Below, piece after piece: positions 1,011 to 10,795 of a DNA stretch of 11,545 bases. The DNA is taken from IMG/VR virus record IMGVR_UViG_2695420540_000010, one strand, 5' to 3'. Under the pieces are notes generated by a model that was not told the DNA's origin, made no database searches, and saw nothing but the letters and a program-made list of their open reading frames with translations. A program made the translations under genes and the position numbers. Each line of letters starts with the position of its first letter. Positions within the stretch are counted from its first letter, which is position 1. This DNA comes from a virus. Lineage: Duplodnaviria > Heunggongvirae > Uroviricota > Caudoviricetes.

Positions 1011-1201
1011 TTTCTCCCGCTAACTGATACCCGGCTAACAGTCTGGCGTTTTCTTTTTCAGCAACGGGAAAGCAACAACCACCACACCCGCCACCAGCAC
1101 ACCGTCAGCCAGCACTGACATTATCCGGCTGCTGCAATGCCATTCACAAAAACAGTAAGCAATCACTTTTTACCGTAACAGGTGATAATCCAGATATGTA
1201 T

Positions 1202-1742: not shown

Positions 1743-1885
1743 TGAATACCGATNNNNNNNNNNNNNNNNNNNNNNNNNNNNNNNNNNNNNNNNNNNNNNN
1801 NNNNNNNNNNNNNNNNNNNNNNNNNNNNNNNNNNNNNNNNNGCCAGCTGAAATATTACTTCACGTTTTATTGTTTATTCCTTGCC

Positions 1886-2957: not shown

Positions 2958-4016
2958 TCATCCGTTCTGGCTGACTAAATCCTGTACTTCCCGAACCGTC
3001 TGCTCAAAACGTTCAGTCTCCAGCTCAACGCCAATTGCACGACGCCCGAGCGCCAGTGCCGCTTTCACTGTCGAACCCAACCCCATGAAAAAATCTGCAA
3101 TCAGGTCACCCGGACGACTGCTAGCGCTGATTATCTGCTGCAGCATTTCTGCCGGTTTTTCGCACGGATGTTTCCCGGGATAGAACTGCACCGGTTTATG
3201 CGTCCACACATCGGTATACGGCACCTGCACCGTCACGCCAAAATACCGCCGCAGATGTTTATATTCACTCAGCAGCTCCGCATACTGCCGGTTCAGTGAG
3301 GTATACGTATCCACCAGCTGGTGGTGGAGCTTTTCCAGTTCACCACGCCGATGCTTCTCTTCTGCCACCCGGGCAAACAGCGCCTGTAATTTCAGATAAT
3401 CGCTTTCATTCGGCAACTGCCACTGACCGGCACTGAACCAGTGCGACACCATGTTTTTCTTTCCTGTGGCATCTGCAATCTGTTTTGCCGTTATCCCCAG
3501 GGCAGCTCGCGCATCACGAAAGTAAGAAATCAGCGGGGCCATCACATGCTGTTTCAGTGCACTGCCCTTCGCCGCATACCCGGCATCTTTCGGACGATAC
3601 GGCCCCTGATAATGTTCCGCGAACAGAATGCGCTCTGTGGCGGGGAAATACGCCCGCAGGCTTTCCTTGTTGCATCCGTTCCAGCGTCCGGACGGCTTCG
3701 CCCAGATAATATGGTTCAGCACACTGAAGCGTTCACGCATCATGATTTCGATATCAGATGCCAGGCGATGACCACAGAACAGGTAAAGACTTCCGGCAGG
3801 TTTCAGCACCCGCCAGAACTGCGCCAGACACTGGTCCAGCCACTTCAGGTAATCATCGTCGCCCTTCCACTGGTTATCCCAGCCCTCAGGCTTCACTTTA
3901 AAGTACGGCGGGTCCGTGACTATCAGGTCAACAGAATTTTCGGGTAACGACCGGATAAATTCCAGGCAGTCGGCGTTGATTAACTCACAACTGGATATTT
4001 TTACAGTATTAAGCAT
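2958..4016 (-). CDS. DNA methyltransferase, beta-class amino-methyltransferase (N6-adenine or N4-cytosine), apparently orphan
   Basis: 352 aa. Motif IV DPPY near the N-terminus (IVTDPPYF) and the SAM-binding FxGxG motif I near the C-terminus (DFFMGLGST), the circular-permuted order of beta-class enzymes. No restriction endonuclease candidate nearby. Confidence 0.8.
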   Translation of the reverse strand: MLNTVKISSCELINADCLEFIRSLPENSVDLIVTDPPYFKVKPEGWDNQWKGDDDYLKWLDQCLAQFWRVLKPAGSLYLFCGHRLASDIEIMMRERFSVLNHIIWAKPSGRWNGCNKESLRAYFPATERILFAEHYQGPYRPKDAGYAAKGSALKQHVMAPLISYFRDARAALGITAKQIADATGKKNMVSHWFSAGQWQLPNESDYLKLQALFARVAEEKHRRGELEKLHHQLVDTYTSLNRQYAELLSEYKHLRRYFGVTVQVPYTDVWTHKPVQFYPGKHPCEKPAEMLQQIISASSRPGDLIADFFMGLGSTVKAALALGRRAIGVELETERFEQTVREVQDLVSQNG

Positions 4017-4163
4017 GGATCATTAAGCCTGTCTCTGATAGGCTCATTCTGCTTTTGCGCAAAGCAGTGGGCCTGAGGTTTGCTTGTGAACCCAACGCAT
4101 GAGCAGATGGCTGGTGGGTGNNNNNNNNNNNNNNNNNNCCCCCACCAGCCGCCCATTTACCAC

Positions 4164-4191
4164 AAATAAAAAAGCCTTCACTGCGGAAGGC
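4164..4191 (-). terminator. Candidate intrinsic terminator on the minus strand, overlapping the stop of the 65-aa ORF
   Basis: Hairpin gccttc-actgcg-gaaggc followed on the minus strand by ttttttatttg. Confidence 0.45.
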
Positions 4192-4375
4192 GTCTGTAAC
4201 AACCGAACTGATAGTCTGCCAGACCCGCCATAACCAGCTGGGTCAGTATTAACTGGCAGCGTTCGCGTGAAAGGTAAGTATTCTGCGCTATCTCCCCGAC
4301 TGTCGCCGGTTCGGTAACGCTTAATTCATTAAACACCACTCTGGCGGTTTCTGTCATATCCTGCTGTTTTAGCAT
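4178..4375 (-). CDS. Small (65 aa) putative helix-turn-helix DNA-binding protein
   Basis: ATG start with GGAAAA about 5 nt upstream. Segment TVGEIAQNTYLSRERCQLILTQL looks like a helix-turn-helix. Sits between the Q candidate and the methyltransferase. Confidence 0.5.
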   Translation of the reverse strand: MLKQQDMTETARVVFNELSVTEPATVGEIAQNTYLSRERCQLILTQLVMAGLADYQFGCYRRLPQ

Positions 4376-4495
4376 GTCTTTTCCTTTTCCGGTTAACGTG
4401 ACACACCAATAACTCTTGTCGAAAAAGCCAGCAAGCTGAAAGACAGGTATTCACCGCCACCAGCGCGTTTACTGTACTGACGCGATTTCAGTCAT

Positions 4496-4517
4496 AAAAA
4501 ACCCGCTCGGCGGCGGG
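4496..4517 (-). terminator. Intrinsic terminator about 40 bp downstream of the Q-like gene; candidate tR'-type site
   Basis: Minus strand reads cccgc-cgccga-gcggg followed by TTTTTT. Confidence 0.5.
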
Positions 4518-4558
4518 TTGTAGAAACTCTTCTAACGTCAGGCATAAAACGCCCATCG

Positions 4559-5314
4559 TTATGACGAATTTACCACAGATTCCGGAAAAATCAACCTAGT
4601 TACCTTTTTTAACTGCCGCTCAGCCCATGCTTCTTCAATATCAAACCGGGTCACCAGCGCATCATAAAATTTCTTAACTGTTTTTTCCCATGACGCGCGT
4701 GTTATCTGGTTTGTCACCTCGCATATAGCATTAAATGCCTCCGTTGATGGTAGTCTTTCATAGCCACGACCACCACAACGCTGGCAGTCTCTGATAACAG
4801 GCATACCACGTTTTACCGACTCTTCACGATGAATGGCGACACCACGCCCACGGCAATCCTTACAGGCGGTGGAAACCTCACCCTTTCCGCCACACTCCGG
4901 ACAGGCAACTTTTACCACCTCCCTGACTTTTTTCCATTCTTCCCAGTAAGACGGATACACACCTTTCGTACACTTTGCCCATACCGGCGGCTTACCATCC
5001 GGATACTGGATCTTGTTTGTAAAAACCTCGCTTTCAATAAATTTTTTTCCGTGACAGCAGGGGCACTGTTTTTTGCTCGCCGCGCTACGGGCATAATCTT
5101 CAAACGCATACGAAGCCATAATACGCATCACTGCCGGTTTTATTTCTGCCGGGAGTTTTCTTAACGCCGCCACGCGATCACACCGACTGAGTGCATATTC
5201 TGTCAGCAATTCTGTTGCCCGCTCTCTGTCATTCATACTAATGCCCATTTTCCCAAGGAACGCAGAAACCCCCATCTCAGCCCGATTCTGTGTCATGCCC
5301 TGCGCGGCCATCAC
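4559..5314 (-). CDS. Putative late-gene antiterminator Q-family protein (QuuQ/YdfT-like) with DnaJ-type CxxCxGxG zinc-finger repeats
   Basis: 251 aa (GTG at 5314, ATG at 5311). Lies downstream of rusA and upstream of a terminator and the tRNA cluster, the Q position in lambdoid phages. Contains CPCCHGKK, CPECGGKG, CKDCRGRG and CQRCGGRG. Family assignment is from context and memory. Confidence 0.5.
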   Translation of the reverse strand: MMAAQGMTQNRAEMGVSAFLGKMGISMNDRERATELLTEYALSRCDRVAALRKLPAEIKPAVMRIMASYAFEDYARSAASKKQCPCCHGKKFIESEVFTNKIQYPDGKPPVWAKCTKGVYPSYWEEWKKVREVVKVACPECGGKGEVSTACKDCRGRGVAIHREESVKRGMPVIRDCQRCGGRGYERLPSTEAFNAICEVTNQITRASWEKTVKKFYDALVTRFDIEEAWAERQLKKVTRLIFPESVVNSS

Positions 5315-5754
5315 ATCAGTGATACTCAGCGCATCTTTCGACGTTGAGGCCGATGCATCAGTCAGGCCGGGGGATTTTGGGGAGTAGTATTTCGGTAAAT
5401 CTTCNNNNNNNNNNNNNNNNNNNNNNNNNNNNNNNNNNNNNNNNNNNNNNNNNNNNNNNNNNNNNNNNNNNNNNNNNNNNNNNNNNNNNNNNNNNNNNNN
5501 NNNNNNNNNNNNNNNNNNNNNNNATGCGCATCACTACCGGTTTTATTTCTGCCGGAAGTTTTCTCAACGCCGCCACACGATCGCACCGACTGAGTGNNNN
5601 NNNNNNNNNNNNNNNNNNNNNNNNNNNNNNNNNNNNNNNNNNNNNNNNNNNNNNNNNNNNNNNNNNNNNNNNNNNNNNNNNNNNNNNNNNNNNNNNNNNN
5701 NNNNNNNNNNNNNNNNNNNNNNNNNNNNNNNNNNNNNNNNNNNNNNNNNNNNNN

Positions 5755-6097
5755 GGTAAATCTTCACCCCCAGACGTCCACCAGATACTGGCTGACCACG
5801 AACGATATTGATTTCATCAAACTGCTCATCGTCCATTAACACTCCCGCATGTGTCAGTGCATCCAGTGGTGCTTTCAGGATATTGTCCAGGTCACGACGG
5901 CGCTTATCCGGTGGCTCTGCAATAATCTTTATCGCCAGTCTTCCGGACAGGCTTAATTTCAGTCGCTGCTGACGGACAATAAGCGCCACATCCCGGCGAT
6001 AACGCTCACCGGCTTTTGATACAAAATATGTGTTGTCACGACGTCGCCAGTAAGTATTCACCGTCGGCGGATAAGGTAAAATAAACTCATGGCGCAT
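5755..6097 (-). CDS. rusA: Holliday-junction resolvase RusA (3' end lost in an N-run)
   Basis: N-terminus MRHEFILPYPPTVNTYWRRR and the motif PPDKRRRDLDN match the RusA family (E. coli RusA has PDRRRRDLDN). Start overlaps the upstream stop as TGATG. Confidence 0.75.
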
Positions 6098-6688: not shown

Positions 6689-8245
<1,557 letters not shown>

Positions 8246-8260
8246 NNNNNNNNNNNNNNN

Positions 8261-8462
8261 GCTTATCCGGTGGTTCTGCAATAATTTTTATTGCCAACCT
8301 TCCGGACAGGCTTAATTTCAGCCGCTGCTGGCGAACAATAAGCGCCACTGCCCGGCGATAACGCTCCCCGGCTTTTGATACAAAATATGTGCTGCCACGA
8401 CGACGCCAGTAAGTGTTCACCGTCGGCGGGTAAGGTAAAACAAATTCTATGCGCTCGGTCAT
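8261..8462 (-). pseudogene. rusA: Second rusA copy, N-terminal 67 codons only, cut off by the N-run next to the IS21 element
   Basis: MTERIEFVLPYPPTVNTYWRRRGSTYFVSKAGERYRR...IIAEPPDK. Roughly 90% nucleotide identity to 5886-6097 by eye. Its ATG directly follows the upstream stop (TAAATG). Confidence 0.6.
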
Positions 8463-9521
8463 TTATGCTTTCCACTTCAGAACACCCGAATTTCTCGCGT
8501 GCATTAAAAAACGAATCAGCAACAACAGCTGACTGCCGTGTTTCTCTTCAAAATCTTTTACTCCGGCATGTAGTTCGTTACGGCATTTACGGCATAACGG
8601 AATAACAAACAAATCATCAGCCTTTGTTCCCATCCCTCCCAGTCCATGACCAATGATGTGATGCGGATCATCTGCCTGATTGCCACACGTCATGCATTTC
8701 TGCGTTTTTACCCAGCGCGTGTATACAGGCATCTCTTCCCGTTGTGATTTCTGGCGCTGGAGATACTGAGCCGGTGACTCCGGATCAACGGCAATGCTGA
8801 CCACCGTCTTTTCCTGTGGTGGGTTCTGTTGCTGGTGGACGTGAGGCAGTAACGCAATATTTTTTGTGCGCTGCTTCAGTATGCTGGTGGCTGTCTGCTC
8901 TCCCGGTATGATGTCGCTTTCACTGTACACAGAGCGAATTTTTTCCGCACGCAACCCCAGCGAACGACGTAATACCGCTTCCGGTAGCGCGTCCGCCACC
9001 TGATTGCGGACCGCCCACCAGGATAATTCAGCCAGAGATAATTCACGCTCCTGCGTACCGCTTATTGCGTGACCGATGACGTCAATCATCCATGCTGACA
9101 GGTTTTGATGAGCAAGTTGCTCGAGTGATTCGGATGTCTGGTCACGCAGCTGGTTGTCGCAGTGCCAGCACAACACCATTGCGCCGGTACCATAACGGTG
9201 AATGACGGTTTCGCTGTGATGATAATCGCCGTGTGGCCACTGGCAGGATTTAATATGGCGCAACAGCCAGTCAGACAATGCACCAGCACCACCAGCAGCA
9301 CGAATCACCCGTGCGTTACTGAAAAACGGCAGCAATGTTTTGTCTTCCACCAGCGGCTGGCGAGCGGCAGGAACGACCCCGGACGGCAGATTACGCATGC
9401 TTTTTGGTTCCGGCTCCACCAGTATTCTGCCGTTATGGAATGCTGACATTGATTCACGGCCTGGCTTAACGATAACCAGACCGAGTTCCGGTACCAGAAC
9501 AGGTCGAAGTAATACCCGCAC
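8463..9521 (-). CDS. Phage nin-region protein with a C-terminal HNH endonuclease motif (possibly YdfU/DUF968-like)
   Basis: 352 aa from a GTG with GGAGG 4 nt upstream (alternative ATG 24 codons in). C-terminus CMTCGNQADDPHHIIGH...LCRKCRNELH fits CxxC...D.HH...CxxC.N..H. The DUF968 assignment is from memory. Confidence 0.6.
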   Translation of the reverse strand: MRVLLRPVLVPELGLVIVKPGRESMSAFHNGRILVEPEPKSMRNLPSGVVPAARQPLVEDKTLLPFFSNARVIRAAGGAGALSDWLLRHIKSCQWPHGDYHHSETVIHRYGTGAMVLCWHCDNQLRDQTSESLEQLAHQNLSAWMIDVIGHAISGTQERELSLAELSWWAVRNQVADALPEAVLRRSLGLRAEKIRSVYSESDIIPGEQTATSILKQRTKNIALLPHVHQQQNPPQEKTVVSIAVDPESPAQYLQRQKSQREEMPVYTRWVKTQKCMTCGNQADDPHHIIGHGLGGMGTKADDLFVIPLCRKCRNELHAGVKDFEEKHGSQLLLLIRFLMHARNSGVLKWKA

Positions 9522-10348: not shown

Positions 10349-10504
10349 TTACTCCTCAGGTTCGTAAGCTGTGAAGACAGCGACCTCCGTCTGGCCGGTT
10401 CGAATTCGTACCTCGCAGAGGTCTTTCCTCGTTACCAGTGCCGTCACTATGACGGTTAAACAGATGACGATCAGGGCGATTAACATCGCCTTTTGCTGCT
10501 TCAT
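10349..10504 (-). CDS. hokD: Hok/Gef-family type I toxin (HokD/RelF-like, 51 aa); the in-frame 70-aa extension to 10561 is a Mok-like frame
   Basis: MKQQKAMLIALIVICLTVIVTALVTRKDLCEVRIRTGQTEVAVFTAYEPEE matches the Hok family, and HokD as I recall it. AAGGAG lies 9 nt upstream. An upstream in-frame ATG at 10561 has its own GAGG. Confidence 0.85.
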   Translation of the reverse strand: MKQQKAMLIALIVICLTVIVTALVTRKDLCEVRIRTGQTEVAVFTAYEPEE

Positions 10505-10795
10505 AGCCTGCTTCTCCTTGCCTTTCGGCACGTAAGAGGCTAACCTAGATTTGCCGTTCATAGATTGAGCCTCAGATTAATGTTAAGCGTCTTGCCGGAC
10601 GCGTAATGTTAACTGGGGCTTTTCTCTATCTGCCTTTTGGTGTTCATGCCTGAGACAGATAGCCTCAAGCACCCGCTGCAATTCTACTTAACTCTCCTTT
10701 TCCCGCAAACCGTTTTTATCCCCAGCGGCAAATCGAATACACCACCAGCGCCACCGCCATCGCAATTCCTACCGTTGTTAATGCTTCAGGCCAGG

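Follow-up and report, generated by a model that had tools for sequence, protein, structure and literature searches.

The closest described relatives of the locus studied here are M.EcoGI and M.EcoGII of Escherichia coli O104:H4 C227-11 (Fang et al. 2012; Murray et al. 2018, PMC5778455), adenine methyltransferases (MTases) encoded at prophage sites, with the beta-class motif order and with no nuclease partner. Both methylate adenine in any context, reaching up to 99% of A in vitro, and are also active on single-stranded DNA and RNA; they are unexpressed in their native lysogen, slow growth when expressed, and have been suggested to come on at induction as a means of overcoming restriction (PMC5778455). 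Reconstructed ancestors of the clade, at about 70% identity, stay non-site-specific (PMC11551740). Here we describe an MTase locus with the same motif order, the same prophage location and the same lack of a nuclease partner, found in a stretch of 11,545 nucleotides (nt) from a Caudoviricetes virus (IMG/VR record IMGVR_UViG_2695420540_000010), which in its full length we call the window. The gene lies between a Q-type late antiterminator gene and a group of tRNA genes, behind a small open reading frame (ORF). We consider it likely that this is an M.EcoGII orthologue in a Q-dependent late operon, silenced until lysis, with control by a structured 5′ leader and with the small protein as an accessory. 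What the analysis itself brought out is which family the enzyme belongs to, how the genes and terminators are arranged, that the leader is conserved and has covarying pairs, and that the small protein is syntenic with the MTase.

An original prediction, made from the letters of the window alone, had placed a beta-class MTase between Q and the tRNAs with a helix-turn-helix (HTH) ORF upstream in the same orientation. Coordinates and order proved correct, and all four elements that it named (MTase, small ORF, hairpin and Q/tRNA flanks) were recovered on the minus strand. In the order of transcription, the locus comprises the following features (aa, amino acids).

4559–5314, minus: Q-type late antiterminator gene, start of the late operon (PF03589 Antiterm, E 2.6e-48; PHROG 127)
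4567–4594, minus: putative late promoter pR′, with TTGATT (4594–4589), a 16-nt spacer and TAAATT (4572–4567) preceded by TG (extended −10); overlaps the 3′ end of Q
4492–4519, minus: first intrinsic terminator (4519–4500), tR′-like and strong, AACCCGCCGCCGAGCGGGTT followed by TTTTTAT
4178–4375, minus: 65-aa winged-helix ORF (PHROG 331; NCBI name 'TrmB family transcriptional regulator')
4166–4191, minus: second intrinsic terminator (hairpin 4191–4174), GCCTTC..GAAGGC followed by TTTTTTATTT; overlaps the stop codon of the small ORF
4017–4162, minus: structured 5′ leader of the MTase, recognised by covariance model, base-pair counts and conservation above that of coding DNA
2958–4016, minus: 352-aa beta-class N6-adenine MTase, M.EcoGII/M.EcoGI orthologue by PF01555, motifs and identity to family members
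2955–2927, minus: sigma-70-like site, TTGAAG, 17-nt spacer, TATTAT, directly past the MTase stop and ahead of tRNA-Met
2917–2668, minus: tRNA-Met(CAT), tRNA-Arg(TCG) and tRNA-Arg(TCT), the downstream boundary of the module

The MTase ORF matches Pfam PF01555 (N6_N4_Mtase) with 144.1 bits (E 7.9e-42; cut-off 26.7), the 221 positions of the profile being spread across residues 29–340 with the target-recognition region between the motifs. DPPY stands at residues 35–38 and the sole F.G.G match, FMGLG, at 310–314, which is the beta-class order; the two motifs from which the original prediction had named the class are intact and in the correct sequence. Two conserved blocks of the protein align with the solved beta-class enzymes M.RsrI, CcrM, MboIIA and DpnA, and no solved structure of the M.EcoGII family was found in the copy of the PDB searched, as PMC11551740 also states. 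Compared with M.EcoGII, 324 of 353 aligned positions are identical (~92% over the full length); the reference came from a machine-read PDF (PMC11551740, Supplementary Table S1), and some of the 29 differences may be reading errors. M.EcoGII has 349 aa, the C-terminus here is 3 residues longer, FMGLG replaces the FMGSG of motif I, and most of the differences fall at residues 148–278, in the target-recognition region. Identity rises to 95% (333/352) with the enzyme of phage 1720a-02, which PMC5778455 names as carrying an MTase 'very similar' to M.EcoGII. Judged by its sequence, the ORF is an orthologue of the known non-specific adenine MTases M.EcoGII and M.EcoGI; as an enzyme it is of an already known kind and adds nothing new. 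Its non-specificity, silence in lysogens and toxicity are taken from the literature on these relatives, and non-specific adenine methylation by this particular allele would follow by extrapolation from them. A weak HTH_3-like stretch, ITAKQIADATGKKNMVSHWF, lies at 3432–3518 (MTase residues 167–195) within the target-recognition region, with an E-value of 0.036, too weak to reach the cut-off.

The gene is also an orphan, as originally predicted: its flanks are Q, the small ORF and the tRNAs, with no cognate nuclease. The only nuclease-like ORFs in the window encode RusA (5564–6097, with a fragment at 8124–8462) and a DUF968/HNHc_6 protein (8463–9521), which lie at least 1.5 kb from the MTase and are ordinary lambdoid nin-region genes that also stand upstream of Q in SfV and mEp460. 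No restriction endonuclease gene was found in the window or in the corresponding contexts of SfV, mEp460, phiNP and 1720a-02. The proposal that the enzyme protects phage DNA agrees with the role put forward in the literature for its closest characterised relatives, whereas a role in modulating expression, the other option of the original prediction, is unlikely in the lysogen, where the family is silent (PMC5778455). The same properties bear on how such a gene can be assessed. A comparison of the methylomes of lysogen and cured strain, with the lack of a lysogen-specific motif counted against the gene, had been suggested; this is the wrong test, because the family has no recognition motif and is unexpressed in lysogens, and it cannot assess such genes and would falsely dismiss a functional one.

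The arrangement recurs in several groups of phages. Phage 1720a-02 and the Stx2a- and Stx2d-converting phages (LC5678xx) encode a 352-aa MTase at 95% identity and keep the order small ORF, leader, MTase and tRNAs downstream of Q; in all these phages stx follows the tRNAs, whereas the window has repeated copies of the STnc100 small RNA (sRNA) there and no stx. The pair of small protein and MTase is also present in Stx2c phages. In SfV (orf47-orf48), mEp460 (gp52-gp53), cdtI and Citrobacter phage phiNP, the same gene pair with a ~150-nt spacer lies between Q and holin, with small proteins 53–94% identical and MTases 79–81% identical to those of the window; these phages have no tRNAs, and the lysis genes come directly after the MTase. 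More distant are N15 (gene 51-gene 52), phiKO2 (gp51-gp52) and Vibrio phage VHML (ORF17), whose MTases are 47–60% identical and whose leaders are recognised by the same covariance model. In N15 and phiKO2, a depositor-annotated late promoter and terminator stand immediately before the leader, between gp51 and the leader, and the lysis genes again follow the MTase. The gp51 of phiKO2 (75 aa, annotated as winged-helix) aligns end to end with the profile of the small protein (hhalign probability 59%, E 9e-5), although BLASTP found nothing between the small protein and gp51 of N15 or phiKO2. VHML has no detectable homologue of the small protein, and its MTase has a normal Shine-Dalgarno sequence.

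Within E. coli the locus is common. By megablast, the 1418-bp span is matched in 2332 of 5426 complete genomes, 2013 of which cover at least 80% of it, in up to 9 places per genome; the best copy reaches no more than 96.6% identity, and RefSeq annotates the copies as 'DNA-methyltransferase | hypothetical protein'. Searches of phage records by tblastn found the MTase in 95 and the small protein in 55. A set of 254 phage records matched by megablast had suggested wide carriage of the MTase without the small ORF; this was rejected, as only the 95 hold the MTase and the rest are partial DNA matches.

Several features of the region upstream of the MTase bear on its transcription. A promoter-like element stands at the place equivalent to pR′ in an Escherichia albertii locus (L006) and in SfV, and we take pR′ as the putative late promoter. 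The first terminator is kept in SfV, where it is annotated as rho-independent, in 1720a-02 and in L006. At the position of the second terminator an equivalent hairpin, with different stem sequences, is found in many homologous loci. The small ORF and the MTase are separated by a 161-nt spacer, and the promoter scan found no promoter-like site between them, nor in the stretch between Q and the MTase. The block of first terminator, small ORF, leader and MTase is conserved despite differing Q alleles, as in 1720a-02, whose Q allele and promoter region both differ from those of the window, and the stretch from the first terminator through the MTase fits a self-contained module. The two terminators, the lack of an intervening promoter-like site and a start codon predicted to be occluded are consistent with silence in the lysogen. 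High conservation across Q alleles extends to the 120 nt that separate the first terminator from the small ORF. The putative pR′ and the first terminator would together yield a lysogen transcript of ~60 nt (4500–4562, minus). Such a transcript would have the position of the StxS sRNA of Stx2 phages. On the other side of the MTase, the sigma-70-like site at 2927–2955 suggests that the tRNAs may have a promoter of their own.

The most distinctive part of the locus is the spacer. The original prediction had seen a terminator hairpin separating the two genes, and the hairpin at 4191–4174 bears this out; the spacer is not limited to that single hairpin, as it also holds a conserved structured leader of ~146 nt. 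The leader starts with GTGRAAATGGGCGGCTGGTGGGTGTTG, stops at the ATG of the MTase and is near-invariant across loci. Mean pairwise identity stands at 81% in the leader and at 75% in the first 330 nt of the MTase (the codons of the catalytic domain), and it drops to 65% in the target-recognition region and to 49% across the upstream 200 nt; the column identity of the leader, 0.88, equals that of first codon positions, third positions being at 0.64. Of 16 loci that have no small ORF, 14 still have the leader, which therefore belongs to the MTase and is no part of the small gene. Trained on enterobacterial leaders, a covariance model matches the window at 4005–4162 (115 bits, E 1e-23) and also detects phiKO2 (E 9e-11), VHML (4e-8), N15 (1e-7) and Photorhabdus prophages (~1e-4 to 1e-3). 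Rfam 15 gave no match to the leader at gathering score, which set aside a known RNA family, including the S-adenosylmethionine (SAM) and S-adenosylhomocysteine (SAH) riboswitches; at E ≤1, with four unmasked homologues, the sole overlap was P26 on the opposite strand (E 0.42), which we treat as chance. Literature searches on M.EcoGII with antitermination, on orphan MTases in lambdoid late regions and on EcOnc sRNAs with MTases found nothing relevant.

In viral contigs, a 19-nt core of the leader is followed by an MTase start 130–132 nt later in 103 of 115 matches. In the other 12, only P1-P2 (defined below) or just the first bases (19 nt) are joined to other cargo, which makes the leader's 5′ domain a mosaic junction as well. 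Four viral contigs (L189, L230, L258 and L279) have an intact P1-P2 and then, in place of the MTase, an unrelated 237-aa ORF (MVVVCSVIMVCSPINIFLEKDTL...). Elsewhere in the window, an ORF at 1035–1166 (minus) ends in ...VAGVVVVAFPLLKKKTPDC, and a near-identical tail, NGRLVGVVVVAFPLLKKKTPDC, trails the first 19 leader nt in 8 viral contigs that lack the MTase; this ORF may be a second late-region junction remnant or a small membrane protein.

The predicted elements of the leader, all on the minus strand, are as follows.

4156–4150 with 4105–4099, minus: helix P1, AUGGGCG with CGCUCAU
4149–4109, minus: long hairpin P2, its loop masked at 4121–4138
near 4088–4078, minus: central segment, the candidate switch element
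roughly 4072–4042, minus: hairpin P4
4027–4017, minus: 3′ strand pairing over the start region

The masked loop is one of five runs of N in the window (1754–1841, 4121–4138, 5405–5523, 5597–5754 and 8246–8260). It places 20 nt, 18 of them N, between the arms of P2, versus 9 nt in the copy on an E. albertii contig, whose leader is otherwise identical. Across loci, neither the loop of P2 nor its 5′ flank varies in sequence.

Two folds of the leader come up repeatedly when its sequences are folded singly. In fold A, P1 encloses P2, and GGUCAC-AAGCG pairs with CGCUU-AC-UGAUC, the 12 bases right before the AUG, around P4. In the 41-sequence alignment, the pairs of fold A are 93.8% complementary and 10 are changed on both sides, as compared with 4.2 ± 1.4 in shuffled controls (0/500 reaching that number); sliding the partners reduces pairing to 29–42%. 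In fold B, UGGGC, from the same 5′ bases, pairs with GCCCA, and UUCGCU pairs with AGCGAA. UUCGCU overlaps the 3′ strand of P1 and AGCGAA overlaps the 5′ strand of the helix that occludes the start. The pairs of fold B are 95.3% complementary and changes on both sides occur in 8 of them, against 3.0 ± 1.1 in shuffled controls; one of its positions is CG in 21 sequences, AU in 8, UA in 4 and UG in 3. In Providencia and Morganella the central segment reads ACGGA and has two possible partners, CCCGU upstream and UCC downstream; both alternatives are therefore kept by different sequences. Throughout the leader helices, G-U cells outnumber A-C cells by 152 to 21. This places the structure on the mRNA-sense strand and argues against an antisense sRNA or a symmetric DNA operator as the cause of the conservation, both of which we rejected.

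The start codon at the end of the leader is itself unusual. In lambdoid leaders the MTase starts without a Shine-Dalgarno sequence (CUUACUGAUCUAUG), and the predicted ensemble has bases −13 to −2 largely in pairs; the helix predicted over them, P3 (4088–4078 with 4027–4017), has 5 pairs changed on both sides. Two other roles for the 5′ half were considered and rejected. P1-P2 begins with an ORF, ATG GGC GGC TGG TGG GTG TTG TAG (MGGWWVL*), whose tandem Trp codons recall a leader peptide or Trp attenuator; its length varies from 7 to ~33 codons, it reads MGAAA* in phiKO2, it lacks the Trp pair in VHML and no Shine-Dalgarno sequence precedes it. P2 was ruled out as an intrinsic terminator, as it has no U-tract. 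A second layer of control is likely, and the leader probably sets or gates translation of the MTase. That it is an undescribed cis-regulatory RNA switch, spread from lambdoid to N15-like telomere phages and VHML, with two exclusive folds that gate translation of a toxic non-specific MTase, is possible, and we put it forward tentatively.

The small ORF upstream is a conserved companion of this module. It has an AAGGA ribosome-binding site 7 nt before its ATG, and an AlphaFold2 model from a 25-sequence alignment (mean predicted local distance difference test, pLDDT, 91.9) has the order H1, strand, H2, H3 and beta-hairpin of a canonical winged HTH. In profile searches, its matches to TrmB, MarR_2, HTH_24 and DprA_WH all fall under the curated cut-offs, and PHROG 331, to which it belongs, has no assigned function; some long homologues are named 'lipoprotein' or DUF3927. 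Its neighbours by Foldseek, with weak E-values (none at or below 1e-3, the best being 1.1e-3), are the winged helices of OhrR/MarR and IclR, the N-terminal winged-helix domains of small-molecule O-methyltransferases and the SelB domain that binds the selenocysteine insertion sequence (SECIS). A Z-alpha-like domain was discarded on reading the sequence, where the key Asn, Tyr and Trp positions are missing. Among 77 loci from different species, collected with the MTase as the sole query, a homologue stands directly upstream on the same strand in 61, its identity falling to ~40% where that of the MTase is ~64% (Photorhabdus and Xenorhabdus); in viral contigs it is found upstream of 108 of 112 leader matches. 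The suggestion that it might be an unrelated regulator does not survive these counts. A controller-like partner in the restriction-modification sense, the second suggestion made for it, is also at odds with a winged helix in place of an Xre-type HTH, with the lack of a nuclease gene and with the finding of no inverted repeat of at least 8 nt at 4370–4600, upstream of the small gene. The protein is dispensable for catalysis, because M.EcoGII works alone (PMC11551740). It is an accessory of the module, conserved yet dispensable, and most likely binds nucleic acid and tunes the module.

Taken together, these observations suggest how the locus may work. The steps inferred are its dependence on Q, the switch in translation and the part played by the small protein. 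The MTase would be the first large gene of a Q-dependent late operon. Without Q, transcripts from pR′ would stop at 4500, with the terminator at 4174 as a back-stop, and the toxic MTase would be left unmade in the lysogen. After induction, Q-modified RNA polymerase would read through both terminators. Translation would stay low or gated, as the start lacks a Shine-Dalgarno sequence and would be closed off by pairing in fold A but open in fold B. The flip between folds could be triggered by the winged-helix protein, by analogy with Com and mom of phage Mu, by an RNase III cut in the coaxial P1-P2, by the kinetics of co-transcriptional folding or by a ligand such as SAM or SAH. Made late, the MTase would methylate replicating and packaged phage DNA, and the methylated progeny could escape adenine-sensitive restriction in the next host.

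Several observations weigh against this account. The putative pR′ has 8 of 12 consensus matches and was not reported by the promoter scan, and a crude finder made a terminator-like call in only 32 of 62 homologous spacers. On the raw MAFFT alignment, RNAalifold recovers part of the leader structure with a weak covariation term (−0.58 kcal/mol). The leader alignment is made up of related sequences, so that the shuffle controls overstate significance, and the two folds came from minimum-free-energy predictions on sequences of that very alignment, which biases the comparison towards their helices. The 3′ halves of the phiKO2 and VHML leaders differ in detail, VHML being the one with a normal Shine-Dalgarno sequence. 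The small protein is absent from ~20% of loci, and any role that it has is non-essential. The relatives for which non-specificity is proven differ from this enzyme at ~29 positions, mostly in the target-recognition region. This last point would also be expected if the MTase were a sequence-specific orphan, active in the lysogen and with an epigenetic effect on host or prophage expression, and phage orphan MTases with regulatory roles do exist. ORF17 of VHML, the 47%-identical relative, was reportedly proposed as a life-cycle regulator by Bochow and colleagues in 2012. We nevertheless regard such an enzyme as very improbable here, given that M.EcoGI and M.EcoGII are both non-specific and silent in their native lysogen (PMC5778455), that the reconstructed ancestors at ~70% identity are non-specific as well (PMC11551740), and that two terminators and a start without a Shine-Dalgarno sequence, predicted to be occluded, oppose constitutive expression. 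A different concern is that the leader might be kept for reasons other than switching, as a lambdoid 'boundary' sequence for recombination, an RNase III site or a set of extra terminators, with the small ORF a hitch-hiking and unrelated moron. The 12 of 115 viral-contig matches in which P1-P2 or the first 19 nt adjoin other cargo look like a mosaic junction, megablast homology to the Stx2c phages stops in the P2 region, and coaxial P1 and P2 would resemble an RNase III substrate. Even so, we find this unlikely: compensatory changes and the bias of G-U over A-C are unexpected of a recombination linker, a linker would not persist in N15-like and Vibrio phages whose flanking proteins are only 47–60% identical, and P2, with no U-tract, is no intrinsic terminator.

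For the small protein, two more definite roles can be set beside that of a nucleic-acid-binding accessory. By analogy with Com, it might be an activator that binds the leader RNA, at P1-P2 or the terminator hairpin, and moves it from the closed to the open fold, turning on late translation of the MTase. The Mu com-mom system likewise has a toxic, late DNA-modification gene with a small ORF before it and a predicted stem over its translation start; here, the small gene lies directly upstream of the modification gene at near-constant spacing (the MTase start lies 130–132 nt from the leader core), the leader has two exclusive folds of which one is predicted to occlude the start, the invariance of the P2 loop and its 5′ flank is as expected of a protein-binding site, and RNA hairpins can be ligands of winged helices, as in the SelB-SECIS complex found among the Foldseek matches. 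The differences are nonetheless considerable. The gene of Com, a zinc finger, overlaps mom, and Mom is not a SAM methyltransferase, whereas the protein here is a winged helix with 2 Cys and no His, encoded across a 161-nt spacer with a terminator and dispensable in ~20% of loci. Of the 16 loci without the small ORF, 14 keep an intact leader, VHML has no detectable homologue of the small protein, and the possible homologue in N15 and phiKO2 lies upstream of the annotated late promoter. With a winged helix and a spacer where Mu has a zinc finger and an overlap, com-mom is a functional analogy only, and we consider a Com-like activator rather improbable. We are similarly doubtful of a DNA-binding transcription factor, C-protein-like or a late-gene regulator, acting on the MTase or other phage genes. 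Such a role would suit a winged helix closest to the DNA-binding domains of MarR, IclR and OhrR, the NCBI name 'TrmB family transcriptional regulator' and the fact that P2 is also a DNA palindrome. It would also recall the C proteins of restriction-modification systems, small proteins of DNA-binding type encoded beside an MTase in the same orientation; these, however, have an Xre-type HTH, act at C-boxes upstream of their own gene and time the expression of a nuclease, and none of this is found here, where no inverted repeat precedes the small gene. In addition, no promoter-like site lies between the small gene and the MTase, and the palindrome tolerates G-U and not A-C (152 versus 21), which fits RNA pairing over a symmetric DNA operator.

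The remainder of the window contains further features. STnc100 (RF02076; 124–161 bits) is present in three copies, at 780–969, 1915–2124 and 2402–2591, all on the minus strand, and tRNA-Arg(TCT) is duplicated, at 1666–1742 and 2668–2744. Together they occupy the place of stx in Stx phages, with no toxin gene, and have the look of a module repeated in tandem; STnc100 has been related to the PasD sRNAs in a 2026 preprint (10.64898/2026.05.13.724894). An IS21-family element at 6689–8127 (minus), with IstB intact (PF01695, E 2.5e-90) and IstA without its N-terminal part, sits between the RusA-like ORFs at 5564–6097 and 8124–8462, which share the N-terminal PYPPTVNTYWRRR; this suggests a rearranged or duplicated nin region. 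At 10349–10674 (minus) there is a hok/sok type I toxin-antitoxin locus (Hok/Gef PF01848, E 3e-23; sok RNA RF01794, 112 bits).

The M.EcoGII family is present in over 40% of complete E. coli genomes, and M.EcoGII is sold commercially, yet the papers on this enzyme leave open how a methylase that harms its host is held off and then turned on. The locus described here supplies a testable architecture for this control, in which Q may drive read-through of two terminators, a start without a Shine-Dalgarno sequence lies behind a leader with two predicted folds, and a conserved winged-helix protein is encoded next to them. Should the leader prove to be a true switch, it would add to the known regulatory RNAs of phages a widespread one that Rfam lacks, and would offer a handle for the controlled expression of M.EcoGII-type tools.

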